From assembly GCA_046538485.1 (NCBI GenBank), contig JBKHIT010000050.1:1-37878 (forward strand): DNA of 37,878 nt. Reading direction: 5' to 3'. The stretch is from Candidatus Brocadiia bacterium. Lineage in GTDB: Bacteria > Planctomycetota > Brocadiia > SM23-32. How positions within the stretch are numbered: position 1 is the stretch's first letter; each line of letters opens with the position of its first letter. The notes beneath the pieces are model-generated. The model was not told where the DNA came from. It did not search any database and saw nothing but the letters and a program-made list of their open reading frames with translations. Made by a program: the position numbers and the translations under genes. Below, in pieces: positions 7,077 through 28,544 of the stretch.

Positions 7077-8156
7077 TCACTCTTTCAGATAACCGGGCAC
7101 AAAGACCGGTTGTTCCCACCGCTGGACGGGCACATCCGCCGGAATGTCATCGTCCAACAGGTAATCTATTGTGTCCTCCAGCAACCGGGCCATATCATAC
7201 TGAACGCGCGGAACCGACTCGTATCCGGCCTTTGGCGGCAGAAAACACGACGCCACGCACAGCCGTTCCCGCACCTGCGCATCACATTCCTGTCGTGCCT
7301 CCTCAATGGCAGCCGCATGGTCGGATTTACACGCCAGCACAGCTGTATTGGGATTCAGCGAGGAAAGCCAATCGACAAGATCCTTTCCTTGAAGGGTCGG
7401 AGGCTTCTTCCACATCTCAACGCCCTCCCGGACAGCCCGCACCGTAGCATCGGTCTCCAACCCGGCATGACTCCCCCCTTCGAACATCCAGTCCTTGTAG
7501 ACGGCCAGGTCATGGGAAGCGACGAAAACGAAGTTTTGAAACCCCTTCCGTTCCAGTTCCCTGACCACCAGGTAACCTCCCCGTCGGTGGTTGGGCAGGA
7601 AGACCGTCTCCTGGCTCACATCATAGGCGGGTGGGGCCAGCAAAGCGACCTTCATACCATTCGACCTTAGTTCGAGGTAGTAGTCGACGTTTGTGGGAGG
7701 AACCGATGTGGCGAACACCCCCACTCCCTGGAAACCTTTCCGCCGGATGTTTTCCAGGAATTTTCTCTCCATTTCCGGACACTGGTTGTCCTCAGACGCG
7801 TTGTGAAGCGTCAGCGTCGCCCCTCGCTCCGTCACCGTCTCCTGAAGCTGATGCAGGATTTCGGGATGTTTTCCCAGGGGGTATCCCAGAGCAATAAACC
7901 GGCAACTGTCGGCGGTTTGATTCGGGGCTTCTGGCGCCACAAACGTCCCTCTGCCCCACTTGCTTGTCAGGATACCTTCTCCCACCAGGTCTCGTATCGC
8001 GTTACGAGCCGTCCCGTAGGCGATATCGTACCTGTCCGCCAGCGTGGAAATCCCCGCAATCGGCTCACCCGGATGCAATCTGCCATCCTCGATCCGTTCA
8101 CGAATATCATCTTTCAACTCATCGGCCGCGAACCGCCGCGTCATAGCATCCGCCAT
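7077..8156 (-). CDS. GntR-family winged-HTH regulator with LacI/periplasmic-binding-protein-type effector domain (AraR-like)
   Basis: IRERIEDGRLHPGEPI..LADRYDIAYGTARNAIRDLVEGILTSKWGRGTFV-type GntR HTH followed by a PBP-like domain; ATG at 8156 after GGAGG. Confidence 0.9.
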   Translation of the reverse strand: MADAMTRRFAADELKDDIRERIEDGRLHPGEPIAGISTLADRYDIAYGTARNAIRDLVGEGILTSKWGRGTFVAPEAPNQTADSCRFIALGYPLGKHPEILHQLQETVTERGATLTLHNASEDNQCPEMERKFLENIRRKGFQGVGVFATSVPPTNVDYYLELRSNGMKVALLAPPAYDVSQETVFLPNHRRGGYLVVRELERKGFQNFVFVASHDLAVYKDWMFEGGSHAGLETDATVRAVREGVEMWKKPPTLQGKDLVDWLSSLNPNTAVLACKSDHAAAIEEARQECDAQVRERLCVASCFLPPKAGYESVPRVQYDMARLLEDTIDYLLDDDIPADVPVQRWEQPVFVPGYLKE

Positions 8157-8177
8157 GACCAAACCTCCACAGTTTCA

Positions 8178-8705: not shown

Positions 8706-9653
8706 ATGTCAACGGCGGCTATCGAAACAAACGGATTGACCAAAGTGTATCACTCCCTATTACCGGGGCAAGATATCCCTGCCGTTGATCATCTCGATCT
8801 GGCTGTACCGCAGGGGACGGTATTCGGTTACCTTGGGCCCAACGGAGCGGGGAAAAGCACCACTCTGAAATTATTGCTTGATTTAACGCAACCGACTGAA
8901 GGGACGGCAAAGATTCTGGGCCGAAAACCCGGAGATACCACGGCCAAGAGCAAGATTGGTTACATGCCGGAAAAGCAAAATTTCTACAATTACCTGACGG
9001 CCAGGGAACTACTGGATTACAGTGCGAAATTCTATAAGATGAAACGTTCGCAGCGCCGTAAAACCATTCCCCGACTGATCGAGTACGTCGGCCTCGAAGA
9101 TGTTAAAGGAGCAAGAATAAAGACGTTTTCGCTGGGGATGAAACGCCGCCTTGGCATGGCGGAAGCAATGCTGAACGACCCTGAGCTTCTCTTGTTGGAC
9201 GAACCAATGTCCGGGCTTGACCCGCTTGGTAGAAAGCATTTCAAAGATCTCATTAAACGGCTATCACGCGACGAGGGAAAAACGGTTTTCTTGTGTTCAC
9301 ACGTATTGGCAGAAGTGGAAACTATTTGTGAGATGGTGGGCATTCTCTCGCGAGGACGGCTTTTGTTGAAGGAATCGATGGATAAGTTGCCCAAGATGCA
9401 CCGTGTACAATTTACAATTGAGGACGCAACAGAGGAGGCGGTTGAAGCTTTGCGGAAGGCCGGAATGACGGTAGAAATAAAAGATGGGCGGGCGATGGCC
9501 TCGACATTAGGCCAACAGAAGGCAGAAAAAGCGCGAGAAGTTCTGCAGTCATACCCCGGTGAGTGCCTGGAAGAAACGGTGACGTCTGAATCGCTTGAAG
9601 AATTTTTTGTCCGTGTGATTAACGAGTCTGAAGAGGGCGAAAAACATGCATAA
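8706..9653 (+). CDS. ABC transporter ATP-binding protein (CcmA/DRI-type; Myxococcus PilH-like)
   Basis: Walker A GPNGAGKST, signature FSLGMKRR, Walker B LLLLDEP, CSH switch. Confidence 0.93.
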   Translation: MSTAAIETNGLTKVYHSLLPGQDIPAVDHLDLAVPQGTVFGYLGPNGAGKSTTLKLLLDLTQPTEGTAKILGRKPGDTTAKSKIGYMPEKQNFYNYLTARELLDYSAKFYKMKRSQRRKTIPRLIEYVGLEDVKGARIKTFSLGMKRRLGMAEAMLNDPELLLLDEPMSGLDPLGRKHFKDLIKRLSRDEGKTVFLCSHVLAEVETICEMVGILSRGRLLLKESMDKLPKMHRVQFTIEDATEEAVEALRKAGMTVEIKDGRAMASTLGQQKAEKAREVLQSYPGECLEETVTSESLEEFFVRVINESEEGEKHA

Positions 9654-10410
9654 CATTCTTGTGATCGCACAGGGCACACTTGTGCGTCAGATTCGAAACA
9701 AAGTCCTTTATCTGCTTATTATCATCTCCCTCTGTTTTGTCGCCGTGGGATCAATGTACCGAGTTCTGTCCTTGGGCGCTGAAATAAAGCTAATGAGGGA
9801 TCTTGGCCTGGCAGGGATCAGCCTCATCGCTATGGCCGTCGCCGTGTTCGTGGGCTCGAACGAAATCGGGAAAGAAATCCGAGAGGGAACTGTGGATGAT
9901 CTGCTGGCAAAACCACTGGGACGCGATGAATTTATCCTCGGTAAATATCTCGGGACATTTATTGTTGCCGCTCTCAACATTGCTCTGATAACGATCGGGT
10001 TCGTAATTATTCTCGTCTGGCACAAAGGCACACCCGCTCTGGGTTTGTTGCGGTCAGTTGTATTAAGCCTGTGCGAGGCCGGCATCCTGATTGCTGTGGC
10101 TGTTTTCTTCACTTCTTTTCTTCCCGAAGCAGTGAGCGCAGTCATAACATTTCTGTTTTTTGTCATCGGACACGGGGCCCATATGTTGCCTCTTATCTCC
10201 GACAAATCGGGGGAACTGCCCGTCAAAATTCTCAGCACGGCTCTCTTCTACATATTGCCCAATTTGCACCACTTCAACGTCAGGGCAAGCATCGGGCAGG
10301 AAGTTCAGGTGCCGTGGGCCTACACTGCTTGCTCCATTTTGTACGGCCTTTGTTACACAGGGATGTTGTTATGCGTTAGCCTTGTCGTTTTCCGGAAAAG
10401 GGAACTGTAA
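9646..10410 (+). CDS. ABC-2-type permease (PilI-like)
   Basis: About six hydrophobic segments; KEIREGTVDDLLAKPLGRDEFILGKYLG motif; ILPNL; ends FRKREL; overlaps the ATPase stop. Confidence 0.9.
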   Translation: MHNILVIAQGTLVRQIRNKVLYLLIIISLCFVAVGSMYRVLSLGAEIKLMRDLGLAGISLIAMAVAVFVGSNEIGKEIREGTVDDLLAKPLGRDEFILGKYLGTFIVAALNIALITIGFVIILVWHKGTPALGLLRSVVLSLCEAGILIAVAVFFTSFLPEAVSAVITFLFFVIGHGAHMLPLISDKSGELPVKILSTALFYILPNLHHFNVRASIGQEVQVPWAYTACSILYGLCYTGMLLCVSLVVFRKREL

Positions 10411-14600: not shown

Positions 14601-14721
14601 GAAAAACTTTCGGTCTGTTCTCATAAACACCGACGCGAACCTGCCTCGTTTTCTCGCCAGCGTAAGCCGCGAAGCAAATAGCCAGTATTGCGAATAAAAT
14701 GAGCGATAGTTGCCTTTTCAA
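11659..14721 (-). CDS. Membrane sensor: periplasmic SBP (family 3)-TM-GAF-PAS-PAS-GAF-PAS, with no output domain
   Basis: Signal-like N-terminus from TTG at 14721; VGVYENRP..GDIDLL..YSPERDRKFDF SBP; TM; GAF (RSSIALPL..GALNLYS..FDEDEVSLLEELADDVA); ESEQKYRSLFE/RDITERK PAS-PAC units; stop right after the last VARDL. Confidence 0.88.
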   Translation of the reverse strand: MKRQLSLILFAILAICFAAYAGEKTRQVRVGVYENRPKVFLDETGTPRGFFPEIIEAIAKIEEWRIQYVPGSWLECLNNLEDGDIDLLVAIGYSPERDRKFDFNSVTVLPSWAYVYRAHGLNISDLLDLKGKRVAVIKEDIYAEAFRNRAEKFHIECEYLEVEDFGKVFEKISQGEVDAGVISRLYAQHYKMGPQVARTSIVVGPSQLHFAVCEGKNADLLSSIDKHLTQWKDDEESIYYSILGRWVQEDDLGGMPSAVIYVLLIVFAMLVLAVLGNAFLRSQLKTQTEDLRRKTDELRKTNRALRALSQCNRVVVQAESEEELFRKVCQLLVDDVGYKMAWVGIAEDDEQKRVRPVACAGDEEGYLDSIEVGWGGNELGCGPTGTAIRTGEPNIYHDNATDDSYEPWKPEATARGFRSSIALPLTVEETVLGALNLYSKNATAFDEDEVSLLEELADDVAYAVGNIRTRDSRKRTERQLRESEQKYRSLFESVNDAIFVIRGEEFIDCNPATEQMFGLARHEIIGKHPVDISPPEQPDGRDSVEKAKKKFELAYQGMAQSFEWVHSRSDGTDFYADVSLNRFQIGEEWLLLAVVRDITERKLAEHAVRESEERFSLFMDYLPAAVFIKDAKGRNIYLNRYMQGVMGADDSWIGKRSDELFPDDVARPMMADDQKALEDGYLVVEESVPDKEGIEHVYESHKFPIPREGRPPLLGGISLDITDRREAQERLRHLNAVLQAIRNVNQVIVREDQRDELIQKACRSLTRRSDYEFAWIGLLDNSNELILQAQAGLEPDAVQLKELPGCAEQAIRKTGPRVVARDEEVCENCPLASSCQHDGVLACRFESEGRIYGVLISCVSLRYAENPEEKELFQEMVDDLAFGLRKLELAQQRDRAEDALRQSEKKYRLVAETMQDIICVHDLDGGIQYLNRAGLEIVGLSEEEVCSMNVTDFLPESELTSMKLRRDARLSGDVRRRVYKTKLRDNTGEEVPVEVSSSPIMEQGEATGIMLVARDLRGRD

Positions 14722-15012
14722 TGTCCAACCCCAATTGGGAGGTATCCAGTGTAACGCGCCTTTTACACTTTCATCATCTAAGTTACAGGACACCATCGCA
14801 GAATGGTAAACCCTTTTCGTCCTTTCATTTGCTTCAGGTCGCTCTCATCCACTCAAAACCCCTCCGTAAACCGACAAATCCTCTTGAAGGAAGAATATCA
14901 GCGCAAGATGCCTGTTGTCAAGCACGCACGGCAATAATGTCTAATTAAGCAACAATACAAAGCCCCTTCCCGGTAAAAAAACAAATAAGGAAGGAACACT
15001 TCCTTGTTGCCC

Positions 15013-15041
15013 TTGACAGACGTTATGTTTCGCACTATAAT
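15013..15041 (+). promoter_or_regulatory. Perfect-consensus sigma70 promoter
   Basis: TTGACA (15013-15018), 17 nt, TATAAT (15036-15041); 31 nt upstream of ATG 15073; A/T-rich tract upstream. Confidence 0.85.
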
Positions 15042-15072
15042 CGCCACATACTACAACATAGGTGCCTGTTGA

Positions 15073-16182
15073 ATGAGCAACACAGGGACAGCAAAATATC
15101 ATCTTCTGGCCGCACAGTTGCGACGGGGAGTAGCGGAAGGAAAATGGGAACCCGGCGGAAAACTTCCCTCCCGACGGCAGCTGCAGCAGGATTTTGAGGC
15201 CAGCAGTATCACGGTACAGAGAGCTTTCGATGCCCTCACCGAAGAAGGATTCGTCGTGCCAGAAGGTCCGCGCGGCACATTCGTGGCCGAACGACCCCCC
15301 TCCCACTATCGCTACGGCCTGGTCTTTGATCGGCACCCCGATGGCTCCGGCTGGTCCCGTTTCTTCGAATCCATCAAGACTCAAGCCCAGGCCATCGGTT
15401 CCAACCGCCCCTGCTCGTTCCGGATGTATTTCGGGGCCGGGGGGCATCCCGACCAGGAGTCCACACAATCGCTTTTCGATGACATCCGCCAGAACCGCCT
15501 GGCGGGCGTAATCCTGAGCCGTAATATCCCTGGATCGAGCGAGTGGCCCATCTGGGATGAGACCGATCTCCCGGGAATCGTAATCCAGAGCAGCCCAACC
15601 CACCCCCGTTTCCCCGCGATTTATCCTCGACTTGCCAGCTTTATGGAGACCACCTTTGATTTTCTTGTGGAGCGCGGCCGACGCCAAATCGCACTGATCG
15701 GTCCTCTGGGAAAACCGGAAGACTCCCCCGGTCTCGCGAAGACTCTCCAAAAAAGAAATCTGAACATTCCCCCTTACCACAGGATCCACCTGACCAACGC
15801 CGTTCGCGATGTGGCCCGCAACTGCGCCCACTTGCTCATGAAATCAGCTCCCGTTCCAAACGCGCTCATCGTCAGCGACGACAACCTTCTGGATCCGGTC
15901 GCTGCCGGTGTGCTCGCCGCGGGAGCAAGGGTTCCCGAAGAGTTAACGATCGTCTCGCTCGCAAATTTCCCCGTGGATGAACAACCGCTCGTGCCCGTCA
16001 CGCGGATCGGTTTCGACATCCATCGGCTCATCGAACTGTGTCTGGAATCGATGGGCCGGCAACGGAAAGGCCAGAATGAAAAGTCCCGCCTGATCGGACT
16101 CGAAGCCCAAATACAACAGTCCTCCGCCCTCCAGGGCGAACCAATTCAGGAAAGGACGTTTCTTCAAGGAGACGCGAAATGA
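15073..16182 (+). CDS. GntR-family regulator with LacI-type sugar-binding domain
   Basis: [60 protein letters not shown]-terminal [26 protein letters not shown]. Confidence 0.9.
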
Positions 16183-17246
16183 AAGATTCATGGGGCAAAT
16201 CAGACGCGGCTTTCACTTTGATAGAACTGCTGGTCGTTATCGCCATCATCGCGATCCTGGCCGCCATGCTCATGCCCGCGCTCGAGTCAGCGCGCGACGC
16301 GGCCCGACGCGCCGTCTGCGCCACGAACCTCCGTCAGCTCGGAACCGGTATGATGCTCTACGCGGGCGACAATAACGGCGCGCTGGGACGGACCGACCTG
16401 GGACGCTGCTGCGATAGCGATGAAGACCACACAAATGGAACAAACTGCGATGCTGGTTACTATCCTTCCCCTGGCAGCGACCTCGATTGCGATAGCTGGA
16501 AATCCGCCAGCGGTATCGCCAATGCCAGCGGACAACCAATCTATGCCGTCAACGATCACGGATCCTGGCTCATCGGGGGGGGTCTTCACACAGATCTGTA
16601 TTTTTGCCCCGACATCGAACATACGGAACCGTCCAGCGGCTGGTACGGCCTGCGCGAGCGCCAGAAAGCGTGGGCCACGTCGACCACGCAGCAGTGGTTC
16701 CACAGCGGAGGCTCTACCCCCGCCGGACAAAACAACACGGCAAGCGGGGGACCGGGATTCAATACCGTCAATGAGGTCAGTTACACCATCAATTGGGCCT
16801 TGATGCCTTTCAAAGGATTCTGGGGATACACAAGTTGCCCCCACGATCGACTCCGGTACAAAATGAGTACCGTCCGCCGCGCCTCCGACCTCCGAAGCAT
16901 CTACCCCGTCCTCGCCGACCATCGGGACATGGGATACGGGAACGTCGATCCGCGACATCATAAAGGAAAAGGGTTCAACTTCCTGGCCGGAGACGGTCAC
17001 GTCGTCTGGGCCAACACCTCTGAATTTATACAGACCGGCAAAACGATAGGCCTCTTCCCGCAATTCTATAATCCCTGGGCGGGTTACAAACAGCTCCCGC
17101 TCTGGTGCAGCGTCGATAGCACAAACTGGCCGGAATGGTTCAGCACAAAGAGCAACCCGTTCCGCGGCGGCGCCGCGTATAACCACGGCGGAACGGTCTT
17201 CTGGCTCACCGCAGCGAAAGTGCTCGGAGCCCCGGAAGCCCGGTAA
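16179..17246 (+). CDS. Prepilin-type N-terminal cleavage/methylation domain protein (DUF1559/H-X9-DG-like)
   Basis: [70 protein letters not shown] overlap with the regulator. Confidence 0.9.
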
Positions 17247-17287
17247 AAAGGGAATCAAAAAGCAGCAGATTACCAGGAAACGCTTGC

Positions 17288-20200
17288 ATGAATATCAGAA
17301 CAAAAAGACAACTGAATCATTTGGTCGCAGCTGTTGCGTGTCTGCTCGTGTCGCTCGCAATGGTCTGCCCCCGGGTATTCGCACAGTCAGACGCCCAAAT
17401 CAAAGCTTTGTTGTTGTTCGACGAACGGGTTAAAAAACTCGATCCGGGCCTCGAAGAAGTATTTCAAAAACGCAAAATAGAAACAACCATTCGCCCCCTC
17501 GGCAAACCGTTGAGTCCGGAAATGCTCCGTCTGTTCCCCCTGGTCATTCTTCCAGATTTTGACGGGTTGAAACCACCGCAGTTTGCCGTCGGGAAAAGCC
17601 TGCACAGCTACTACGCAGAAAAACGAAACATCGATCTGATTCTCGAGTACGTGCGGGACGGAGGAGGATTGGTTTTTTCGCCGTCAGTGCGAGGGGGCGG
17701 ACAACAAACGGTCCGGGGTTGCTCCGCCATTCTGGAACCTCTGGACGCGAAACTTATCGCCGCACAAATCCGCGATGACCAGCGTTCTGTCGTCGACGGA
17801 AATTACTCCTGGACTACCAATATCGACGATTCAGCAGTCAGTAAAGGCGTCGAAAGAATCGCCTACCCCACCAACCTGCTCCGCTGGGACGACGCCTACG
17901 CAACCGTCCCCCTCACAACGGAAGACCCGGCGTGGCAACCCGTTGTCCGTGGAATGCCCAAAAGCATCGCCGCTCGAGGTCTGAAAGACGAATGGTTTCC
18001 TGTTAATGACCATAAGTCGCCGGCCATGGCCGCCATTCGACCGTTCGGAAAAGGAAGGGTGGCCGTCCTGACCCTGAACCCGGCCTACACATTCGAAAAA
18101 GGCCTTTCAGAGATCGAACGCGGTTGGCTCGGTGAAGCCCATGTCGGACCCGTCAACGGAATTTTCTTGGAAAAAGGCGACGAAAAAGGTCGGAGCGACG
18201 GCCTGCAACTTATCCTGAATATGGTGCGGTGGACAGCGTCCGCCGGTGTAAAGGCAGGTTTTGGCGGTTACACGCAAGAAAAACTCGCCGCGCTCCCCGA
18301 ACCCAAAAAGCCGGACATCCCCGGGTGGTTAAAAGGCTGGAACACGGGGAATGCAAAGCCACAGAAAATTCTGATCGGTGCGCGAAGCCGCTACAGCAAC
18401 GGAAAAGGAAGCGTCAAAGATTTCGCCAGCGCCGCCCAGGATGCCGGCTGCAGCGTCTTGGTGATGAGCGAGACCTTCGAGGACATGAAAGCAAAAGACT
18501 GGCCGCAATTTGTCGACGACTGCCGCTCGGCAAGTTCGGAAAAACTGGTCGTCCTCCCCGGAATCGATATCCCGGACATTTATCTCAACCGCTACATTCT
18601 TTTCGGCCAACCGACTTTCCCCCAGCCGTTCATGCTCAATGAGGCCGGTGATGCCCTGAAGGAACTTCAGTACCTGGCCCACGGCTTCGGGACCCATTTC
18701 GCGGCCATCCATCGCCCCAGCACCACTCCCATGGTCCATCAACTCTACAAATTCTTCCAGGGCATCTCAGTCTACACCTATAAGGACGGGGAAGTTGTGG
18801 ACGACGCCCGGTTGGCGTACGAATGGCAGGCCAACAGCGCCAGTCTCCCTATCCCCATAGTTGTTCATGAATTTGATTCGCCGGAAAAGGTTCAGAAGGC
18901 CGCCTCCACCGGGCATCAGCTTTACGTCTGGGCCGACACCCCCCGCAATGCAGCGTGGTATGCCCGGGCGGGAGCTCAGCATTACTGGGCCTCGCCGTCG
19001 CATTTTCTCGTCACCTCCGGCCCCATGATCTCTGCGCTCGGCCGAAAATCAGCGCAGAGCGGAACCGTCACGGTCGAAAGCGAAGCGCCCATCGTGGACG
19101 TGCAACTCCGCAACCACCGTTTCGCCGAAAGACGCTGGCGCCCGAACGCCAGGAAAGCCCGACTGGATTACCACCTGCCGTGGTCCCATCTGCGGTGGAA
19201 TATTCTCTGGGTGGAAGACGCCAGAGGGCGCACGGCGATTACACCTCCGATGAAGTTCGGCCCGACACAACGGTACACGTTCCGATGCAGCGACCGGCAG
19301 AATTTCTTCGGATGGGCCTGGCGGTATCCGGGAACCCGACAGCGTGGCGCCTCCATAACCGCATGGGGAACTCACGAAGGCCGCGGAACCTGGCCTCACG
19401 GCGGCGGCGTCCGCCGAGGCGAAAACATGGCGCCGCTGCTGGAATTCCCCTATGCCAGCCCGGAAGTTTACATCACCGATGTCATACTCGATCAGCGCTA
19501 CTGGCGGGCCAACTGGCGCGATGTCGGCTACGACGCCGGCTCCCAGCAGGGAACAACCCGCAGCCGGGTCTACCAGGGCCGGGTCCGCTACCTCGACTTC
19601 AAAAAAGACAAAGAACATATCACTCGCGACCGCACCTGGATGGTGCGTGACTGGTGGCTGCGTCTCCGTATGCCAGTCGCGCCGGAAGGGCCTGTTTTCC
19701 CGGGCCTGACATCCGTCGGCCGCAAACCGCTCTACGGATACACAGACCCGGAAAGTGGCAAATACGTCACGGGCAAACTGGAAAAAGGCCACCTCGACCT
19801 CCCCCCCGGCAGCTGGGTTGGTCGTAAAAACAAAAACGTCCTCGTCTCCCTCAAAAGGGCTCTGCGCGTTACTGCACGGGGCAAAGTTGGTATCGCTGCG
19901 CCGAAAGATTCCGGCGCCCCAGTGCCCGTGGGAACAACCTGGAAAGCGCGATACGTCATAGTGCCACACAAAGAAATCGAAGATGTCCTCTCTTACATGG
20001 GTTTCGGCTCAGAAGTTCCGTACCGACTGCAACTTTCCCGAGGCTCCCTGGAAAAAATCGCTCTTATGGCCGAGATCAAGCCCGATGGATACGGCGCAGC
20101 CGGAAACGTTGAGCCGGCGAAGAAATTTCCGCTTCCCTACCCGCTCCCTGTCATGGTTCACGGACTCAACCCGAACTGGGAAGCCGGGCTCTGGCGCCCC

Positions 20201-20503
20201 GACGGCAAATTGGACAGATTCGGCATATTCGAGCGCGTGGGGCGGGCGGAACTGGATGTCACAAAAGAAGGGAAGTTTTACGCTGGCAACCTGATCACAG
20301 CTGACAACCCCCGCCTCCGGCTCAGCATCGCAGAATGGAAAAAAGACCTGATAACAGTCGTCGCCAATAATCCCACGACTTCAGACATTACGACCTTTCT
20401 CAAAACTCCCAGAGAGATCGATAACAAATACCGGCTGGAAGCGGAAGCCAAAATTCCCGCCGGCAAAAACATTCACCTGACGTTCCCCCAGAACAAGGAG
20501 TGA
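17288..20503 (+). CDS. Large secreted protein A: GATase-like N-domain, degenerate PHP (CehA/McbA-like) domain, beta-rich C-terminus
   Basis: Signal peptide (..PRVFA|QS); EYVRDGGGLV and FGKGRVAVL (GATase-like fold); GARSRYSNGKGSVKDFASAAQDAG, VLPGID, VTSGP; full-length paralogue of 20508-23804. Confidence 0.8.
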   Translation: MNIRTKRQLNHLVAAVACLLVSLAMVCPRVFAQSDAQIKALLLFDERVKKLDPGLEEVFQKRKIETTIRPLGKPLSPEMLRLFPLVILPDFDGLKPPQFAVGKSLHSYYAEKRNIDLILEYVRDGGGLVFSPSVRGGGQQTVRGCSAILEPLDAKLIAAQIRDDQRSVVDGNYSWTTNIDDSAVSKGVERIAYPTNLLRWDDAYATVPLTTEDPAWQPVVRGMPKSIAARGLKDEWFPVNDHKSPAMAAIRPFGKGRVAVLTLNPAYTFEKGLSEIERGWLGEAHVGPVNGIFLEKGDEKGRSDGLQLILNMVRWTASAGVKAGFGGYTQEKLAALPEPKKPDIPGWLKGWNTGNAKPQKILIGARSRYSNGKGSVKDFASAAQDAGCSVLVMSETFEDMKAKDWPQFVDDCRSASSEKLVVLPGIDIPDIYLNRYILFGQPTFPQPFMLNEAGDALKELQYLAHGFGTHFAAIHRPSTTPMVHQLYKFFQGISVYTYKDGEVVDDARLAYEWQANSASLPIPIVVHEFDSPEKVQKAASTGHQLYVWADTPRNAAWYARAGAQHYWASPSHFLVTSGPMISALGRKSAQSGTVTVESEAPIVDVQLRNHRFAERRWRPNARKARLDYHLPWSHLRWNILWVEDARGRTAITPPMKFGPTQRYTFRCSDRQNFFGWAWRYPGTRQRGASITAWGTHEGRGTWPHGGGVRRGENMAPLLEFPYASPEVYITDVILDQRYWRANWRDVGYDAGSQQGTTRSRVYQGRVRYLDFKKDKEHITRDRTWMVRDWWLRLRMPVAPEGPVFPGLTSVGRKPLYGYTDPESGKYVTGKLEKGHLDLPPGSWVGRKNKNVLVSLKRALRVTARGKVGIAAPKDSGAPVPVGTTWKARYVIVPHKEIEDVLSYMGFGSEVPYRLQLSRGSLEKIALMAEIKPDGYGAAGNVEPAKKFPLPYPLPVMVHGLNPNWEAGLWRPDGKLDRFGIFERVGRAELDVTKEGKFYAGNLITADNPRLRLSIAEWKKDLITVVANNPTTSDITTFLKTPREIDNKYRLEAEAKIPAGKNIHLTFPQNKE

Positions 20504-20507
20504 ACCG

Positions 20508-23500
20508 ATGTTCGGAAAACGTTTGATTTCGCTGATTGTGCTCGCCGGACTCATGCTGGCCTCTACTGTCTCCGGTGCCGAATTGCCCGATCCAAAAACG
20601 GGAGCCCCGGATGGAAACCCCATGAGTCTGCTCCTGATTGAGTCCGGCGGCCACGGGATTATCGATCCCCAGCTCAAAAAAGAGCTGGACCAAAAGGGAT
20701 ATAAACTCCGGATTCTGAAATCTTTCGGCGCTTACAAATTTGACGTCGATTACCTCAAGAATTTCAGCGCGGTGCTCCTCTCCGGCTATCCCGGCAGCAA
20801 AGACACATTCGGAGTCGGAAGCTGGAGGACGGCTCAGACTCTGGAGCCGAATACCAGAACGCTCCACGATTACGTCCAGAACGGCGGATCGATCTTCCTC
20901 ATCCCGGATTACGGCGGCGGCGGTCGTTCCAAGTTGCGAGCGTGCAATAAGTTCCTCAAACCTTACGTCGCGCGCTACCTGCCACAGCAACTCATGCCTG
21001 ATCCTGATTTCAAGGACACTTGGACGGAAGCCCGGATCCATCCCGGTCACCCGATCACAAAAAACCTGGCAAACCTTGCCTACCCCGCCGACGTGCTGCG
21101 CTGGGACACGGCCTGCTCGGCCAATCCGATCCTTGTCGGGGACGGCTGGACAGTTCTGGCTTCCGCAGCCGAAGGTCACGGCACTTACGTCGTCAAAAGC
21201 AACAATGGCGTCTTCCCGGAACGCCAGACCGAACATCGGAATCTCTGGGTCGTGCGGAAGTCCGGCAAAGGGACCGTCGCTCTCTCCGGCATCAACGCTT
21301 TTTATATCCTCAGCCACGCCTATCACAAAAAGAACAGCGTCGGGGAAGCCGGAACAGGGAAGATTGACGGTGTTTTCATGCATGGCAAGGAAAACGGCCC
21401 GGCCAGCGAAGGTTTTAAATTTCTCGACCGCACGCTTCGTTATCTCGGCTCGCAGAGCGCGAAAAATGGCATCGGCGGAAAAGACCCCGGCGAGCCGACC
21501 AAACTGCCACTGCCCGAGACGCAAAGGGTGATGGACTGGGACAAACGCGAGATTCCCCCCACCTGGGCGAGCAAAGTCGTTCCCGACCGGCGCACATGGG
21601 TTTTTGATCCGTATCCCGACCCCACCATCGATAAGATCGATTATTACAAAGCGCTCGTCGGTCCTCGAACCGAGTACAGCGTCGGCGAAGGTTCGGTGAA
21701 AGACTGGCGCAAAGCCGCAATGGATGCCGGCTATGACGCGATCATGTTCGCCGATCTCATGGAACACACCACGCGGGAAGAATTCCAGCAGCTCGTTGAA
21801 GATTGCGAGAAAAACTCCGACGAAAACTTTGTCTGTCTGCCCGGGCTTGATGCCGCGGATTCTCAGGACACCCGCTATCTGCTGCTGGGTCTTGATCAGT
21901 ATCCGCTCCCGCAGTGGACGACACATTTTGGGCGGCGCATTCTGCACACCCCGAACCTGTCCCTGGGATTGGGCGGGCGGAAGATGGTCAGTCTCCACCA
22001 TCCCACCCGATCGGGAATGCAGCCACAGATGTTCAAACACTACCAGGGCATCACGGTCTACACTTATGATGAAAAGGGAAACCTGATCGACGACGGTCTC
22101 TTTGAGTACCAGTGGCAAATCAGCAGCGATAGCAATCCGATTCCCATCGCGGCTCACGAATTGACTTCACCCTCGCAGGTCGCGAAAGCGGCGCGGTCGG
22201 GATTCCAGCAGATCCTTCCCGCCCCGAGTATCACACGCGGCGTTGAATATTTCCGCCATCCCCACGCCCTCTATTTCACATGCCCGGTACGCTATTTTAT
22301 CAGCGAAGGACCGATTCTGGATGGCTGGAGCATTCTCAACAAAGATATCAAAGGACCCGAGCTCAACCGCGATCGCTATCGGATGGCCGTCGGCGTGAGC
22401 AGCGACGCCAACATAAAGGATATCACGCTTTATGACGGTTTCCGACTGGCCCGCCGCTGGCGTCCCGAGAGCAACGATTTCGACACCCTCGTTGTCGGCG
22501 AACACGACGCTCAGCACATGTATATGCTCGTCGCGGAAGATGAAAAGGGCCGGCGTGTCGTCTCGCCTCAGATTCGCACGGTGGTGCGGAATTATCGTTT
22601 GCGTTGCGGCGATCGACAGAACTGGCTCGGTTCCCAACCCAATTGGTGTATCTATCCGGGGTGGCGTCGCACCTACGGACACTGGAGGTTGCCTCTGCGC
22701 AACGCGCGCGAATCGACGGGATACTGGGACAAGGAAGCCGTCTTCTTCGAGTTCCCGTTCTACTCCAATCATTTTGTGATGACCGATCTGAACGCCTCTA
22801 AAAAATTCGTGAGCGTCTTCGGCGGGCCGCATATGACCGCGGGCGATTCTTCGCCCATGTTCAACGTCCAGGACAAGGATTTCACCGAAACTTACGTCCG
22901 CACCCTCTATCGGAATCCGCCCAAACGGAAAGATTTCAACGTCCTCATGGTCGAAACGACCATCAGGGTCAAACGCGATCTGGAGCCGGTAATCAACGGA
23001 CCGATCTATCCGGCGATACGCGTGCGCAATGAAGGCAGACGTCTCATTCTGCCCGGCAAGGAACCGACAACCCTCCCGGCGGAAAAACTCACCAAATTGC
23101 CGGTCGGGAGTTATCTGGGTGGATGGATTCCGCTCACGGAAGGTCTGGTGATGAAAGGCAAAAGAGTCGGCTACCCGGCACCGGACAATATGGATGTGGT
23201 TCCCCGAGGGACGGAATGGACGGCGCGTTATCTCCTTCTGTCCGGCAAACGCTGGTGGTGGCGTGCGGGCGGCAAAGGCAAAATCGATCCTCGCGCCGAG
23301 CAAGCGCTCAATCAGATGGGGTTCCGTGGTGACCCGCCGTACTCTTTCGATCTCAAACAGGGCAAACTGGAAAATATCGGATACTGGGTTGATTTCCAGG
23401 CTGCTGATGGGGGTATCCGCGGCGGGCTCAAAAACTCCGAAGGTGAGAAGATTCTCTATGACCTGCCCTGCCGTATACACGGTCTTAACCGCCGCCACCC

Positions 23501-23804
23501 GGCTGCCCTGTGGCGTTCCGACGCGAAATATGTCGAATGGTTCGGTGTTCACGAGGGAATCGGCTACGTCCCCCTCAACGGGGACAGAAATGTCGATTTC
23601 TACGCCGGCAACATCGTCCAGACGGATCCGCGGTTGTTTGTGGCCGTGCTGACGTGGACGGCCGACAGGGCCGAGTTCCGCGTTAACAATCCCACGACAA
23701 ACGCCATAACGACCACCTTCGCCACCGTCCAGGAGATTACCGGGCACAAACAAATCAAAAAACAGATAACAGTCCCGGGCGGGCGATCGGTAACGGTTAA
23801 ATAA
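20508..23804 (+). CDS. Large secreted protein B: paralogue of protein A
   Basis: Signal peptide (..STVSG|AE); DYVQNGGSIF, SGKGTVAL; GPRTEYSVGEGSVKDWRKAAMDAG, CLPGLD, ISEGP; AAGGAG RBS; 4 nt after the stop of A. Confidence 0.8.
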   Translation: MFGKRLISLIVLAGLMLASTVSGAELPDPKTGAPDGNPMSLLLIESGGHGIIDPQLKKELDQKGYKLRILKSFGAYKFDVDYLKNFSAVLLSGYPGSKDTFGVGSWRTAQTLEPNTRTLHDYVQNGGSIFLIPDYGGGGRSKLRACNKFLKPYVARYLPQQLMPDPDFKDTWTEARIHPGHPITKNLANLAYPADVLRWDTACSANPILVGDGWTVLASAAEGHGTYVVKSNNGVFPERQTEHRNLWVVRKSGKGTVALSGINAFYILSHAYHKKNSVGEAGTGKIDGVFMHGKENGPASEGFKFLDRTLRYLGSQSAKNGIGGKDPGEPTKLPLPETQRVMDWDKREIPPTWASKVVPDRRTWVFDPYPDPTIDKIDYYKALVGPRTEYSVGEGSVKDWRKAAMDAGYDAIMFADLMEHTTREEFQQLVEDCEKNSDENFVCLPGLDAADSQDTRYLLLGLDQYPLPQWTTHFGRRILHTPNLSLGLGGRKMVSLHHPTRSGMQPQMFKHYQGITVYTYDEKGNLIDDGLFEYQWQISSDSNPIPIAAHELTSPSQVAKAARSGFQQILPAPSITRGVEYFRHPHALYFTCPVRYFISEGPILDGWSILNKDIKGPELNRDRYRMAVGVSSDANIKDITLYDGFRLARRWRPESNDFDTLVVGEHDAQHMYMLVAEDEKGRRVVSPQIRTVVRNYRLRCGDRQNWLGSQPNWCIYPGWRRTYGHWRLPLRNARESTGYWDKEAVFFEFPFYSNHFVMTDLNASKKFVSVFGGPHMTAGDSSPMFNVQDKDFTETYVRTLYRNPPKRKDFNVLMVETTIRVKRDLEPVINGPIYPAIRVRNEGRRLILPGKEPTTLPAEKLTKLPVGSYLGGWIPLTEGLVMKGKRVGYPAPDNMDVVPRGTEWTARYLLLSGKRWWWRAGGKGKIDPRAEQALNQMGFRGDPPYSFDLKQGKLENIGYWVDFQAADGGIRGGLKNSEGEKILYDLPCRIHGLNRRHPAALWRSDAKYVEWFGVHEGIGYVPLNGDRNVDFYAGNIVQTDPRLFVAVLTWTADRAEFRVNNPTTNAITTTFATVQEITGHKQIKKQITVPGGRSVTVK

Positions 23805-23892
23805 GAGCGGCTTTTCGAGTGTTAGCAAACCAGAAAAGCGTCAACGGCAGATGAAGGAGAAAGATAACTTACCAGGACGAAATCTTGGGGCA

Positions 23893-23933
23893 GCGGACTG
23901 GACTTCAGCCGGAGGCTGGAGTTCAGAACGCGG
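23893..23933 (+). repeat. REP-like family A
   Basis: GCGGACTGGACTTCAGCC GGA GGCTGGAGTTCAGAACGCGG. Confidence 0.88.
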
Positions 23934-24029
23934 ACCTGCAGCTCTTGAGCATTGTCCGGACTCGCAACAACTTTCGGCTTGTGGAAACTTTCCACAATAT
24001 ACCCCGGCCTCACGTATCCGTGAACAACA

Positions 24030-24302
24030 AAAACCTGAAGCCACATGCGTTTGTAGCTCACCCTTTGGCAGAAGGCTACACAGGCACTCGCCGCATGGCG
24101 CATTGCAATGACAGGACTTCCGGGAAAGCGCTTCTCAGGGCCAACGGCCCGGCAGATAATAGCCCAGGGTACAGAGGGCTGAAAGTCCTCGGCGCCCTGG
24201 GTTAAGGATGCGAGGAAAATATAGTGGGCTGAAGGCCCACCATAAATCCGCTCCCAAAATACCGTATCAGGAGCGGACTGGACTTCAGAACCGCTCCCGC
24301 GG
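24030..24302 (+). repeat. ~265-bp structured composite repeat, copy 2
   Basis: Direct repeat of 1903-2224 lacking the 48-bp insert; ends in the left arm of family A. Confidence 0.93.
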
Positions 24303-24340
24303 CATTCGAGTTTAGCGTGTGTTATGTAGTCTAAAAAGAG

Positions 24341-24586
24341 GCCCGGTAGGGCCGATGCAGACTTAGCCCCGGGCGAGCCCGATTCAGGCAGAGCCCGGGG
24401 GAGAGGACGGCTAACAATGCGGAGCGGATCGCACGGACGAGGTCCGTCGCCGCTTCTGCGGCGCTCGCCTGCGGCGAGGCGATCCGCATTCTTTCTCTTA
24501 CGTTCCGTTATCCCAGGGCTCGTTCGGCCGAACAACGGCCTCACTTCACACCTGGGCTAAGTCTGCTGCGCCCGCTCCGCGGGCTG
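24341..24586. repeat. REPIN-like long inverted repeat
   Basis: GCAGACTTAGCCC (24357-24369) / GGGCTAAGTCTGC (24554-24566) perfect IR; nested GCGGATCGC (24424) / GCGATCCGC (24479); small terminal hairpins GCCC..GGGC. Confidence 0.75.
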
Positions 24587-24622
24587 ACGGATCAAACGCA
24601 CCCGGACGCTTAACTGATACCT

Positions 24623-24663
24623 GCGGGGCTGGAGTTCAGAACGCGGTGCGTAAACCTGCAGGT
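24623..24663 (+). repeat. REP-like family A right half
   Basis: GCGGGGCTGGAGTTCAGAACGCGGTGCGTAAACCTGCAGGT; matches 30810-30850 and 2221-2257. Confidence 0.8.
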
Positions 24664-24744
24664 TTCGCGGCGGAGCGCTGGCCCGGTGTTTGGCCGGCCC
24701 CGCCACGGCGGGGGCGAACGACAAACGGCAGGTCCGCCTCGCCC

Positions 24745-27054
24745 TCACGAAGCTTCCACTACAAACTCAATCTCCGCGTTCCGCACAACGTCTCCGCACT
24801 TTACGGTAACTGTCACCACCGCCAGGCCCGTCTCCCCCGCAATCGCCACCCCGTTCTCGGCCGCCGCCACTCTATCGGGCAAATCGCTCGAAAATTCTAT
24901 CCTCGCGTCTCTCAGATCCGCCACGTAGCCGTTCTCCGTCCGGCCCATGACCGTCAATTTTGCCTCATCACCCGACGATAACCGGACAGCACCGGTATAT
25001 TCGCCATCGGCCGATACAAAAATCTTCTCAAGCGGATCATCATCTTCCGCAAACGGATAATTTTTTGTCAGACCGATCGGACGCGGATCGACTTCTTCGA
25101 TACCCAGCTCCCGCGCCGGAGAATCGTGGCGGAACCTGTAATCGCCGGCTTCCGGATCAAAAAAACGGGGGTTACCGATTCGGGAGGAACCATCATATTT
25201 TTCGTCAAGAATCTCACGCCACTGTTCCCAATCTTCGATTTCCGGGACGTTTTTAATCCCATAATTTCCCGCCGAATTCCAGAGCAGGTTCCGCTCGCTG
25301 CTTTCAAGGCGATCTTCCTGCCAATCTTCGTCCGTGTCGTGGTTGGAAAACTCATAAACCGTATCCCCGGTCTCGTAAAAAATGTTCCGTTCGATCAGGA
25401 GCCGACGGTTGGGCTCCTGGGCCATCTCGATAAAACACGCCGCATCATCGGCCTCGTTTTGGGCCACGACATTATTGACAATCCTGTTGTCCTGCCCCTT
25501 GATCAGAAGCGGCGCCCACAAACGCCCTTCGCCCTCCGTCCGAAGGCGTTCCACGATATTCTTCTCAACCAAAAACTCATCGCACCCGTCGTCCAGGTAA
25601 ATTGCGAAACCGAACGACATGTAAATATTGCTGTCATGCACGTGGTTATTGGAAATTACGTTCCCCGTACCAGCTCCCCAGGCCTCGAAAACCCCGGTAT
25701 CCTGAGAATCCGTATTCACCCGGAACATATTGTTAAATTCGATGCGGTTGTTTCGAGCATGAGCGAAATCTTTGGCATTGTCCCGTGTCACCTCCACACC
25801 ATCGATTGTTTTCCCGACAAGAACCCCGGGTCGCGGGCTTTTAAGGCTGATCGCATACCGGGGAGCGTGATGGATGCGGTTGTGCGATATCACATTATCG
25901 CCACTCTGGGAGAGCTGAACCCCCGCCCCGTGCCGGATGATGCGCCCGACATGGTGAATGTGATTGTTGGAAATCTCATGATCGCAACTCAAATACTCAC
26001 GCGTGCTGGAAGGACCGGAGATGTATACCCCGGTGAAACCCAGAGACCTGATTTCGTTCCCGCAGGTCCGACATCCCTGGCTCGCCCCATCGATTCGAAC
26101 ACCGCAACGTCCGCCGTTCTGAATCCTGCAGCCTGTAATGTCAACATTGCGCGCGTTGGAGAGATGAATGACCCCTTCTCCATCGCCCGCAACGTCAAAA
26201 TCAAGTCCTTCAAACTTAATATTTCCAGCGGGGCAGTCTTTGCCATCCCCTTCAACACGAACAATGACCGGGACAGACGGAACCACGATCTCCTGGTTTT
26301 CAGTCGTGCCGCTGAACGGTTTGTAGTACAACCATTTCTCATATTCATCGAGGGCAAATTCTCCGGGTTCGTTCAGAAACTCGTGCTGGCTCTGAATAAA
26401 GTACCGCGAGCCCGGTCCGATGTCATAATTTGCATTTCGTGCCAGAGTTACGGTGCGGGATTCGGTATCAATATCTTCGATCGACAGAATCTGGAAACTC
26501 CAGTTCCATTCTCCTTCTACACCACCCGGCCAGAGTCCGATTTCGACCCGTTCGGGATCGGCGTTCTCGATCGGATCGCCCGGGGCATACCGGAACTGTC
26601 GATGTGAATTCTCCTCGACCATCTCGGCAACCCGGGAATAGCTCTCGGAGGGCAGACGCGCGAGGTGAGCGCGCTGGCTATTCTCAAAGAGTGATCCGGG
26701 CACATCCAGATCCTCGACAGAAACGCGAAATATCCCGTCTCCGGCATCTTTCCAGCCGGTCAAAGCGGTGCCCCCGCAGAGAACCGGCCGCTCGCCTGGA
26801 TAGGCCTGCCAGCTGACTTTCGAGCCTTCCGGCGGCGATTCCTGGGGACCGAGCACCAGCGGTTCTTCCAGATAGTACGTCCCGGAGCGGATCAGGACGT
26901 TGATCTCTCCGTCCGGGCCTTCAGCAATTGCCGCTCTGACCGCTTCGCGAGCCCGATGCAAGGTCAGGAACGGGCCATCGGTCTTCTCGTTATTGGGCTC
27001 TTCAATTTCGCCATTCCAACCGTCATTACCTTCAGGTGAAACGTAAAAAATCAT
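24745..27054 (-). CDS. Right-handed parallel beta-helix protein (pectin-lyase-like fold, putative GH/PL) with C-terminal Ig-like (Big_2-like) domain
   Basis: FYVSPEGNDGWNG..DGPFLTLHRAREAVR, GTYYLEEPL, repeated ISNNHIHH/ISHNRIHH/IEFNN units, IYLDDG; C-terminal IEFSSD..VAAAENGVAIAGETGLAVVTVT. Start set at ATG 27054 after GAGG; no signal peptide. Confidence 0.87.
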   Translation of the reverse strand: MIFYVSPEGNDGWNGEIEEPNNEKTDGPFLTLHRAREAVRAAIAEGPDGEINVLIRSGTYYLEEPLVLGPQESPPEGSKVSWQAYPGERPVLCGGTALTGWKDAGDGIFRVSVEDLDVPGSLFENSQRAHLARLPSESYSRVAEMVEENSHRQFRYAPGDPIENADPERVEIGLWPGGVEGEWNWSFQILSIEDIDTESRTVTLARNANYDIGPGSRYFIQSQHEFLNEPGEFALDEYEKWLYYKPFSGTTENQEIVVPSVPVIVRVEGDGKDCPAGNIKFEGLDFDVAGDGEGVIHLSNARNVDITGCRIQNGGRCGVRIDGASQGCRTCGNEIRSLGFTGVYISGPSSTREYLSCDHEISNNHIHHVGRIIRHGAGVQLSQSGDNVISHNRIHHAPRYAISLKSPRPGVLVGKTIDGVEVTRDNAKDFAHARNNRIEFNNMFRVNTDSQDTGVFEAWGAGTGNVISNNHVHDSNIYMSFGFAIYLDDGCDEFLVEKNIVERLRTEGEGRLWAPLLIKGQDNRIVNNVVAQNEADDAACFIEMAQEPNRRLLIERNIFYETGDTVYEFSNHDTDEDWQEDRLESSERNLLWNSAGNYGIKNVPEIEDWEQWREILDEKYDGSSRIGNPRFFDPEAGDYRFRHDSPARELGIEEVDPRPIGLTKNYPFAEDDDPLEKIFVSADGEYTGAVRLSSGDEAKLTVMGRTENGYVADLRDARIEFSSDLPDRVAAAENGVAIAGETGLAVVTVTVKCGDVVRNAEIEFVVEAS

Positions 27055-27317: not shown

Positions 27318-28544
27318 TCAATCCCGCGCCACGTTCCGTCCAACCGTCAGAAGATAAACGGCGGCCAGAATACCGATCATGGGGAAACCGCAGGCGGGGA
27401 TCAACATCGCTTTCCACATCTGAGCTTCGCCGATCTTTTCCACAACAGTTCCCATGGCGTTCAACGACACGAATATAGCCAGCGCACTGATTACCTGGTG
27501 GAGTGCCATCGCCGCACCGAATCTTTCCGATTCTTCGTCCGCCAGCACACTCAACATCGTCGGGAATTCAGCCGACCACAGGAAACCTCCCAGCACGTAA
27601 CCGCCGGCGGTCAACAAATAGTTCTTCGACAAAATACCCGCAATCAGCACCGAACCACCGAGAATTCCCGGCAATATCATGAACAAACGCTTGCCAAAAT
27701 TTTCCGGCATCAAACCGAGCAAAAGACGCGACAGGATATACGACACCGCATAACCCGAAAGCACATATCCCGGCCCGATCACGGGATCGCCCGCAAAAGC
27801 ATCGCTGTCCAGAAACCGTGCCATCCACAGATGGATCGTCGAATCGCAGGTCCCGTGCAGGACCATCAAAAGTATGATCGGCAGAAGCTGGGGCGGCAGA
27901 AGAAGATCTCGGAAACTCCAGCGTTCACGGCCGTCTCCCTCAGGGGTTCCAAAACGAACGCGACATCGGTAAAGAAACGTTGCTCCCAATACCAGCAGCG
28001 TGAACAAAACATAGGGCATATGAAAAACGATCCCGAACGTAACCCGGTAAACCTTCCGGCTCAACTGAAGAAGACCTTCGGCAACGCTCGGGAAGAAAAG
28101 CGACCCCACGCTGGTACCCGCGAAATTAAGCGACAGCACACGGCGCCGATTATTTGGAAAAAGTCGGATCAAATATCCGCTCACTGCGACCACGAGCGGG
28201 CGCATAGAAAACCCGTAGAGAGCCATCCCGATTGCCAGCACAATCCAGCTCCGCCCCGATGCCGCAATCACAGTGAAAGCACATGCAACACCAAACAGAG
28301 AGATTCGAAGCACTCTCCGCGGTCCCCACCGGTCCACCATTGCCCCACCGATCAGAACCGTGAAAAGCCCCGCCCCACTCAGCACGCTCAACAAAAACCC
28401 GAACCGCCCATCACCAATACCGAGATACTGCTGCAGCGTATCCCGAAAGACAGGGATCATCTTCATGCTCTGGCAGAGCCAGATCACACAGACCGTTATC
28501 ACAGCGTATTTGACCCGGCGGTATTTTGTGGTGGCGGACGGCAC
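27318..28544 (-). CDS. Major facilitator superfamily transporter (FucP-like sugar permease)
   Basis: About 12 hydrophobic segments; motif A GGAMVDRWGPRRVL; 408 aa. Confidence 0.88.
   Translation of the reverse strand: MPSATTKYRRVKYAVITVCVIWLCQSMKMIPVFRDTLQQYLGIGDGRFGFLLSVLSGAGLFTVLIGGAMVDRWGPRRVLRISLFGVACAFTVIAASGRSWIVLAIGMALYGFSMRPLVVAVSGYLIRLFPNNRRRVLSLNFAGTSVGSLFFPSVAEGLLQLSRKVYRVTFGIVFHMPYVLFTLLVLGATFLYRCRVRFGTPEGDGRERWSFRDLLLPPQLLPIILLMVLHGTCDSTIHLWMARFLDSDAFAGDPVIGPGYVLSGYAVSYILSRLLLGLMPENFGKRLFMILPGILGGSVLIAGILSKNYLLTAGGYVLGGFLWSAEFPTMLSVLADEESERFGAAMALHQVISALAIFVSLNAMGTVVEKIGEAQMWKAMLIPACGFPMIGILAAVYLLTVGRNVARD

Follow-up and report, generated by a model that had tools for sequence, protein, structure and literature searches.

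We describe here a four-gene operon of a Candidatus Brocadiia bacterium that joins a sugar-type regulator and a pilin-like protein to two giant secreted paralogues, proteins A and B. The operon occupies positions 15013–23804 of the window, by which we mean the whole stretch of DNA that was analysed (37,878 nt; GenBank assembly GCA_046538485.1, contig JBKHIT010000050.1, forward strand). Judged from the sequence, these genes form a genuine operon, most likely sugar-induced, of a kind that recurs: the best reading is a sugar-responsive cassette in which a regulator, a pilin-like protein and one or more giant secreted proteins follow one another, an arrangement found repeatedly in this genome. For A and B, the most likely reading is that they are separate enzymes, independent of each other, from a candidate new carbohydrate-active family, a reading to which we give about even odds. 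The order of regulator, pilin-like gene and giant protein offers a concrete handle on the DUF1559 pilin-like paralogues, which are among the largest unexplained gene expansions in bacteria of the Planctomycetota–Verrucomicrobiota–Chlamydiota (PVC) group; every cassette brings together a candidate regulator that senses the inducer, a single pilin-like protein and its cargo, so that all three are testable jointly.

All four genes lie on the forward strand. The regulator (P0001, 369 amino acids (aa); 15073–16182) and the prepilin-like protein P0002 (355 aa; 16179–17246) share a 4-nt ATGA overlap, a gap of 41 nt separates P0002 from A (P0003, 1071 aa; 17288–20503), and A is followed after 4 nt by B (P0004, 1098 aa; 20508–23804). 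Upstream stands a sigma-70 type promoter (15013–15041, forward strand), TTGACA and TATAAT separated by 17 nt, which scores 12 out of 12 and is the sole perfect match within 14700–24800; the promoter scan of that interval returned 5 promoter-like sites, compared with 3.3 ± 1.8 in shuffled sequences. The perfect promoter and the tight coupling of the four genes had both been described in a first-pass annotation made from the sequence alone, and both hold. An inverted repeat at 14984–15008 (10-nt arms, 90% complementary, 5-nt spacer; no strand assigned) stops 4 nt short of the −35 hexamer and is a candidate operator.

The regulator combines a GntR winged helix-turn-helix domain (PF00392, residues 12–71, E = 4.9 × 10−13) with a LacI/GalR-type binding domain (Peripla_BP_3, PF13377, residues 196–338, E = 2.4 × 10−10; both Pfam), an architecture that we take to be the AraR type of the GntR family. 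Members of that type share with P0001 the GntR winged helix and the LacI/GalR-like sugar-binding domain, and P0001 is the first gene of the operon that it presumably represses. P0001 differs in that its regulator type is expanded in the genome (5.19 Mb, 88% complete), typically with a pilin-like gene next. A prepilin-like gene comes immediately after 6 of the 11 regulators that align with P0001 over 200 aa or more in BLAST, on the same strand in each case, and in a looser list of regulators 9 out of 14 have a pilin-like gene within 4 kb. Four of the six pairs continue into giants of non-A/B families (CBM9-like, DUF4838, NHL and unassigned). On contig C57 the pair is followed by a 909-aa DUF4838 protein, then one of 804 aa and, further down, by a second pilin-like gene and, about 2 kb on, a CBM9-like protein (1275 aa); on C73 by an unassigned protein of 1288 aa; on C85 by two giants, one CBM9-like (1335 aa) and the other with NHL repeats (1426 aa); and on C51 by a CBM9-like protein (1254 aa), the ‘regulator’ open reading frame (ORF) of that pair carrying a sulfatase N-terminal part. 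The sixth pair (C119) has no same-strand gene after the pilin-like gene. The C51 frame (C51:39292–40992; L056:1293–2993) unites a sulfatase N-terminal half and a LacI-type binding-domain C-terminal part; gene fusion, a frameshift or decay of a regulator could each account for it.

The association with giants extends to the pilin-like genes of the genome as a whole: an ORF of 1000 aa or more comes next, within 300 nt, after 18 of the 108 pilin-like genes compared with 111 of the 4113 other genes (about six-fold enrichment; P = 2 × 10−9, Fisher test), a count that comes from a crude ORF set in which paralogous cassettes are not independent. The proposal that the pilin-like gene is organized together with a sugar-type regulator and giant secreted proteins is thus upheld, and this grammar recurs in the genome. 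The same query that gave 12 matches to the P0001-type regulator here gave none in 12 genomes of the same family, and a search for B-like genes (E up to 1 × 10−20) found none in 18 genomes of that family but detected them in 3 of 12 relatives further away. That these queries recovered neither gene type within the family suggests a lineage-specific expansion or acquisition of the cassettes. A second regulator of the GntR/periplasmic-binding-protein type lies in the window at 7077–8162 (reverse strand), with no pilin-like gene within 4 kb. Directly downstream of it, a 169-aa ORF at 6112–6621 (reverse strand) matches the C-terminal part of sulfatases only (SGSH_C; Sulfatase positions 254–300) and is probably a gene remnant.

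P0002 has a prepilin N-terminal cleavage/methylation motif (N_methyl, PF07963, E = 1.4 × 10−7, 31.2 bits against a cut-off of 21.2; TIGR02532, 27.1 against 16.3), and a search of the PDB matched it to the alpha-1 helices of pilins and GspG. Its match to DUF1559 (PF07596) is marginal (23.9 bits against a cut-off of 23.3) and spans residues 37–64, corresponding to profile positions 2–29 of 268 only. Near the C-terminus the protein reads H-x10-DGHV, as the first-pass annotation had noted in calling it a pilin-like H-X10-DG protein, and D272-G273 is conserved among relatives. The model of the C-terminal H-X9-DG motif is presumably TIGR04294; no NCBIfam model of H-X9-DG name matched P0002 at E up to 0.1. 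P0002 resembles the DUF1559/H-X9-DG family of Planctomycetota, Verrucomicrobiota and Lentisphaerota (PF07596, PF07963) in its cleavage/methylation motif and its pilin alpha-1 helix, and perhaps in its C-terminal H-x10-DGHV sequence, and differs from that family in that just the first 28 positions of the model match and in its own C-terminal extension. That extension is common only to P0002 and three clusters of orthologues (62%, 45% and 46% identity). One of these clusters (P0184) and the closest orthologue of B (P0029, 75%) both list a longest contig of 104099 bases, which is only a hint of synteny between the pilin-like gene and B outside this genome.

The genome has 125 prepilin-like ORFs (132 six-frame motif matches) and also encodes the machinery that could process and use their products, with 2 prepilin peptidase, 3 secretin and 10 type II secretion-type ATPase matches. 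Expansions of this kind have been reported before: one study gives Planctopirus limnophila 68 DUF1559 paralogues of unknown function (PMC10632474), and another mentions a DUF1559 copy on a plasmid (PMC5352709). A 2026 report on a Verrucomicrobiota isolate describes a pulG-like pseudopilin with 67 homologues in an alginate cluster; a pseudopilin was over-expressed on alginate, and type II secretion of the alginases was suggested (PMC13274419). We found no functional study of DUF1559 in the literature searched, with subscription journals outside its coverage. A predicted complex of A (residues 36–700) and P0002 (residues 36–355) scored 0.00, which counts neither way. A second DUF1559 pilin-like gene lies at the end of the window (36950–37876, reverse strand), where its upstream side is cut by the contig end.

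Proteins A and B align from end to end over 1132 columns (27% identity, E = 2 × 10−109), and every motif pair quoted for them in the first-pass annotation is present. Both start with a Sec-type signal peptide, judged by eye, in keeping with what had been claimed for them, and B has the domain order of A. Neither matches any Pfam (E up to 1) or NCBIfam model, searches of the PDB with the sequences of A and B alone gave nothing useful, and the same literature search found no paper on an A/B-like family; to this extent the first-pass annotation, which spoke of a candidate undescribed system, is supported. Word-based searches recovered 23 strong homologue clusters of A (42–54% identity) and 7 of B (40–75%). 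A profile of 31 sequences from the A and B groups, searched against 1.84 billion representatives, matched 1158 proteins at E up to 1 × 10−3 and 476 at E up to 1 × 10−30, and the most widely shared part is the N-terminal stretch of about 680 positions. The very large secreted proteins of this superfamily, in at least 1158 sequence clusters, have no family model and no known function, and the superfamily ranges across Lentisphaerota, Armatimonadota, Planctomycetota, Verrucomicrobiota and Kiritimatiellota. The genome itself holds three further, very distant paralogues (contigs C67, C44 and C96), giving five genes of the superfamily overall. Two leads from the Atlas, DUF3604 and DUF4350 (low score of 0.77), were rejected, neither being found in a Pfam scan of the 31 members at E up to 1.

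To describe the fold we used an AlphaFold2 model of A (pLDDT 87.5, pTM 0.85) and, for the C-terminal folds, a separate model of residues 580–1071 (pLDDT 84.7). In the models, residues 37–322 (17396–18253, forward strand, as are all features of A) form a flavodoxin-like domain of the GATase1-like/ThuA/GIFT clan, with structure matches to OST48 (Z = 18.9 and 18.1), IFT52 (Z = 17.6), STM3548 (Z = 15.8), ThuA 1t0b (Z = 14.4) and the middle domain of a GH42 enzyme (glycoside hydrolase (GH) family 42; 5xb7, Z = 13.5). A profile match to STM3548 (2gk3; E = 0.0014) and weak Pfam matches among the 31 members (ThuA in 3, IFT52_GIFT in 2, GATase1_like in 2) agree with this assignment. A conserved GGG stretch (G125, G126) is, as far as the sequence shows, not a nucleophile elbow; structures of GH42, GH112 and GH5 enzymes and of fucosidases also include this GATase1-like domain, as an accessory module.

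This domain is followed by a predicted PHP-type (β/α)7 barrel in which the canonical His ligands are replaced (residues 356–577; 18353–19018). It matches 2anu (TM0559) with Z = 17.7 over 189 aligned residues (root mean square deviation (r.m.s.d.) 2.6), and residues 350–649, which include the immunoglobulin (Ig)-like β-sandwich that follows the barrel, match 3e38 (BVU_3505) with Z = 16.7; weak matches to Pfam PHP (PF02811) occur in 17 of the 31 members (best E = 1.6 × 10−5), with none in A and B themselves. The Ig-like domain (residues 580–650; 19025–19237) is placed as in 3e38 and EndoQ. Next are R-C-S-D-R-Q-N (residues 666–672; 19283–19303), a loop conserved more strongly than any other in the family, a putative galactose-mutarotase-like supersandwich (residues ~665–930; 19283–20077) and a C-terminal β-sandwich (residues ~912–1049; 20021–20434; 4a37, Z = 8.5, 85 aligned). 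The best structure matches of the putative supersandwich are to C-terminal domains of GH38 (2wyh, Z = 9.4, 186 aligned, r.m.s.d. 3.5) and GH2 (6sd0, Z = 9.1) enzymes, with Foldseek E values of 1.6 × 10−5 to 5 × 10−5 for Ams1 and OpgG/OpgD.

On the models, the domain layout of A is glycosidase-like. The multi-domain glycosidases of families GH42, GH2 and GH38 share with A their domain repertoire and the order of magnitude of their size, and A and B are secreted and encoded amid carbohydrate genes; they differ from these enzymes in having a PHP-type barrel instead of a TIM (β/α)8 barrel, in placing the GATase1-like domain first and in lacking sequence similarity to any GH model. The predicted PHP phosphoesterases 3e38 (from Bacteroides vulgatus) and 2anu have the same barrel and, in 3e38, the Ig-like domain, whereas A and B are three times longer, lack the H-x-H and D-H metal ligands and add the N-terminal GIFT/ThuA-like and the putative C-terminal supersandwich domains.

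The barrel has lost the canonical His ligands of the PHP fold. PHP domains bind metal through an H-x-H motif (motif I) and a D-H motif (motif II). When the family barrel is aligned with canonical PHP domains of the same genome (hhalign, probability 88%), R366 coincides with the second His of H-x-H, E395-T396 coincides with D-H, and by register G364 replaces the first His. The ligands of both motifs are therefore missing from A and B, in which the motif II His is Thr or Leu. We examined conservation in 113 full-length members: the two proteins of the operon and 111 representatives no shorter than 1000 aa. Position 364 is Gly, and position 412 Cys, in all 113; E395 is conserved in 102, D430 in 88, D505 in 84 (Glu in 17), H527 in 75, D644 in 111, C667 in 97, D669 in 111 and N672 in 106. 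Position 366 is Arg in 48, His in 34 and Gln in 15, and the Arg is invariant in the A and B clades. Because the first His is Gly in all 113 members and the motif II His is lost, a three-metal site of the known PHP type cannot form; the His at position 366 in 34 members indicates that part of the old site is retained. Conserved positions fall at barrel strand ends or in the R-C-x-D-R-Q-N loop, and from the models we infer a remodelled pocket that this loop completes, possibly with a disulfide between C412 and C667. The same genome also encodes, around C64:5827 (L069), a 749-aa frame with a canonical PHP start (H-x-H, D-H), so that intact large PHP proteins coexist with the degenerate A/B type.

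Carbohydrate genes recur around family members. We collected 100 related loci, 39 from genomes and 61 from metagenomes with some duplicates, and for 32 of them scanned the two nearest ORFs on each side (108 of 161 listed ORFs). A glycoside-hydrolase, pectate-lyase-like or sulfatase gene is among the nearest neighbours in 10 of the 32 loci (GH9, GH116, GH39, GH2, GH4, GH127 and GHL10 being among the enzymes), and GFO/IDH/MocA oxidoreductases occur near members in 3 loci. The window itself has one sulfatase gene and a fragment of another, a heparinase II/III-like gene, genes for BNR and beta-helix proteins and an MFS transporter. URO-D-like (uroporphyrinogen decarboxylase family) genes adjoin superfamily members at three unrelated loci (L016:12186–13385, L031:6717–7841 and L032:6688–7710) and also lie beside the paralogue on C67 (L007:8527–9582).

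Taken together, these features would fit the following scheme. P0001 would keep the consensus promoter off until a sugar ligand releases the repressor. P0002 would probably be cut by one of the prepilin peptidases of the genome, a presumed role, and then either stay anchored in the inner membrane or join a pilus-like or type II secretion apparatus. A and B, each of about 1100 aa and drawn from two anciently separated clades, would be exported by the Sec route and act in the periplasm or outside the cell, putatively as independent enzymes. Each comprises the GIFT/ThuA-like domain, the PHP barrel, the C-x-D-x-x-N loop, the Ig-like domain, the putative supersandwich and the final β-sandwich; the barrel has lost the His-rich three-metal site of phosphoesterases and keeps the strand-end residues E395, D430, D505 and H527 (A numbering), and A and B would differ in specificity on one complex, probably anionic or sulfated, glycan. 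If the superfamily is enzymatic, it would bring a new fold class to glycan breakdown in bacteria that process sulfated and other recalcitrant polysaccharides, and a new use of the PHP barrel.

Several observations weigh against this scheme. No glycoside hydrolase, polysaccharide lyase (PL) or carbohydrate esterase/esterase model (Pfam, NCBIfam) matches A, B or their relatives; the supersandwich score of 9.4 is barely above background, for which the best match is typically 7–8; the R-C-S-D-R-Q-N loop falls in a low-confidence stretch of both models, and the clustering of conserved residues is inferred rather than read from coordinates. Loss of the His ligands could make the PHP barrel purely structural, and degenerate PHP domains do occur in some DNA polymerase III alpha subunits. 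In 22 of the 32 loci none of the four nearest ORFs encodes a carbohydrate enzyme, and RpoC-type housekeeping genes are among the neighbours. The dependence among paralogous cassettes in the enrichment count belongs here as well.

Several of these points would suit a different role, in which A and B are non-catalytic glycan binders or scaffolds, the PHP barrel is structural only, and the GIFT-like and mutarotase-like domains hold polymers for the sulfatases and the heparinase-like lyase. The canonical metal ligands are gone (G364-x-R366; E-T for D-H), no catalytic family model matches, enzymes of GH2, GH38 and PL8 also use the supersandwich fold to bind sugar without catalysis, and giants of the sister cassettes carry CBM9-like modules. 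However, residues at the barrel strand ends are conserved across the superfamily, as is the C-x-D-x-x-N loop, a pattern that one would sooner expect of an active site than of a scaffold, and the His at position 366 in 34 members preserves part of the old site. We regard a binding role as possible but doubtful.

The enzyme reading can be combined with the cassette in a bolder proposal, which we consider unlikely. A and B would represent an enzyme class built on a remodelled PHP barrel, with the His ligands replaced, carboxylates and one His kept, and the site closed by a Cys-tethered C-x-D-x-x-N loop; the expanded DUF1559 proteins would, separately, be cargo-linked components of a pseudopilus or secretion route that exports giant glycan-processing proteins or holds them at the envelope. 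If true, bacteria of the PVC group and Armatimonadota would have in this route a substitute for Sus-type systems. Like the operon described here, the Sus-like loci of Bacteroidota are substrate-regulated clusters of secreted proteins among glycan-degrading enzymes, whereas this operon has a prepilin-like protein, and a TonB-dependent transporter and SusD were not found among the window ORFs scanned.

To determine the extent to which A and B belong together, we used a FastTree phylogeny of 44 proteins and the 100 related loci. A falls in a clade of 13 rows and B in another of 13 rows, each with a support of 100; both clades contain Armatimonadota and Lentisphaerota, and that of B also Planctomycetota, Verrucomicrobiota and Kiritimatiellota. 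The duplication that separated A from B is therefore old, given that each clade spans several phyla. The loci hold 40 A-type, 30 B-type and 28 other genes. For 21 A-type genes the downstream sequence extends to 3.3 kb or more, and none of them is followed by a B-type gene; for 18 B-type genes the upstream sequence reaches that length, and only one (L020) has an A-type gene nearby. Of 18 assemblies with an A-type or B-type gene, 6 hold both; in 5 of these the two are on different contigs with no partner in the flanks present, and in the sixth (L020) they are in one locus, 4 kb apart on opposite strands in divergent orientation. Co-occurrence in one genome is thus common, and an obligate A–B heteromer is unlikely.

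Adjacency to pilin-like genes gives a similar picture. A pilin-like ORF occurs anywhere in the locus in 12 of the 100 loci, and a pilin-like gene is adjacent on the same strand in 4 (L020, L028, L083 and L099). Pilin-like genes make up 108 of the 4221 crude genes of this genome, which implies a base rate of adjacency of about 5%; the observed 4% is close to this rate, so membership of the A/B family does not in itself bring a pilin-like neighbour, contrary to the family-specific link that had been envisaged. The three further paralogues in the genome also have no pilin-like neighbour. A GntR/periplasmic-binding-protein regulator is adjacent to family members in L026 and L099. Homologues of A and B are thus largely single and unlinked to prepilin genes, which the first-pass annotation had named as an outcome that would count against its own model; that they would be characterized enzymes, which it had named as well, is not what was found.

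That model envisages a heteromer of A and B, in the periplasm or at the cell surface, that captures glycans together with the pilin-like protein and would be the PVC equivalent of SusC/D; it now appears improbable. In its favour are the translational closeness of A and B (4-nt gap) in one operon with the pilin-like gene, the six-fold excess of giant ORFs after pilin-like genes in the genome, and two other tandems of divergent family members (L083, with two pilin-like genes upstream, and L106); L099, moreover, repeats the order of regulator, pilin-like gene and A-like gene. Against these stand the lack of any A-type/B-type tandem in the 100 loci, the divergent orientation of the L020 pair, the separation of the two types on different contigs in 5 of the 6 assemblies with both, the near-base-rate adjacency to pilin-like genes, the paralogues without a pilin-like neighbour and the absence of an outer-membrane transporter from the operon. 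The heteromer is thus not borne out, and the SusC/D-like uptake role is not supported. The statement that the window has no SusC/TonB or sugar ABC importer needs a correction: no SusC, TonB or SusD was found among the 21 window ORFs scanned with Pfam (four in the operon and 17 flanking), but an MFS transporter (27318–28544, reverse strand) and an ABC-2 type transporter (8706–10410) are present.

The closest outside parallel to the layout of the window is the metagenome contig of L083 (5185–13417), which has two pilin-like genes, an A-type gene (44% identity) and, 15 nt on, a very distant superfamily member (23% identity). A recurrent giant neighbour (single-linkage clustering, 10 loci) was considered as a tandem paralogue and rejected, the neighbour in L047 sharing a GATase1-like stretch only (hhalign probability of 1.5%).

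We consider it very improbable that A and B are classical secreted PHP phosphoesterases acting on phosphorylated glycans (phosphodiester-linked capsules or teichoic-acid-like polymers) or extracellular nucleic acid: the scores of 17.7 to TM0559 and 16.7 to BVU_3505, both annotated as predicted phosphoesterases, the weak PHP matches in 17 of 31 members and the invariant R366 of the A and B clades, which could bind an anionic group, are set against the replacement of the first His of H-x-H by Gly in 113 of 113 members and of the motif II His by Thr or Leu in A and B, and against surrounding domains and neighbouring genes of carbohydrate type.

The ~940 nt downstream of B (23805–24745) contain no convincing gene; the single ORF there (23822–24544, reverse strand, 240 aa) has no Pfam match, and an Rfam search of the window, this stretch included, matched no family. 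The stretch is marked by exact direct repeats of 20 nt (at 23914 and 24627) and 17 nt (at 23892 and 24272), and by a 23-nt inverted repeat (24350–24372 and 24551–24573).

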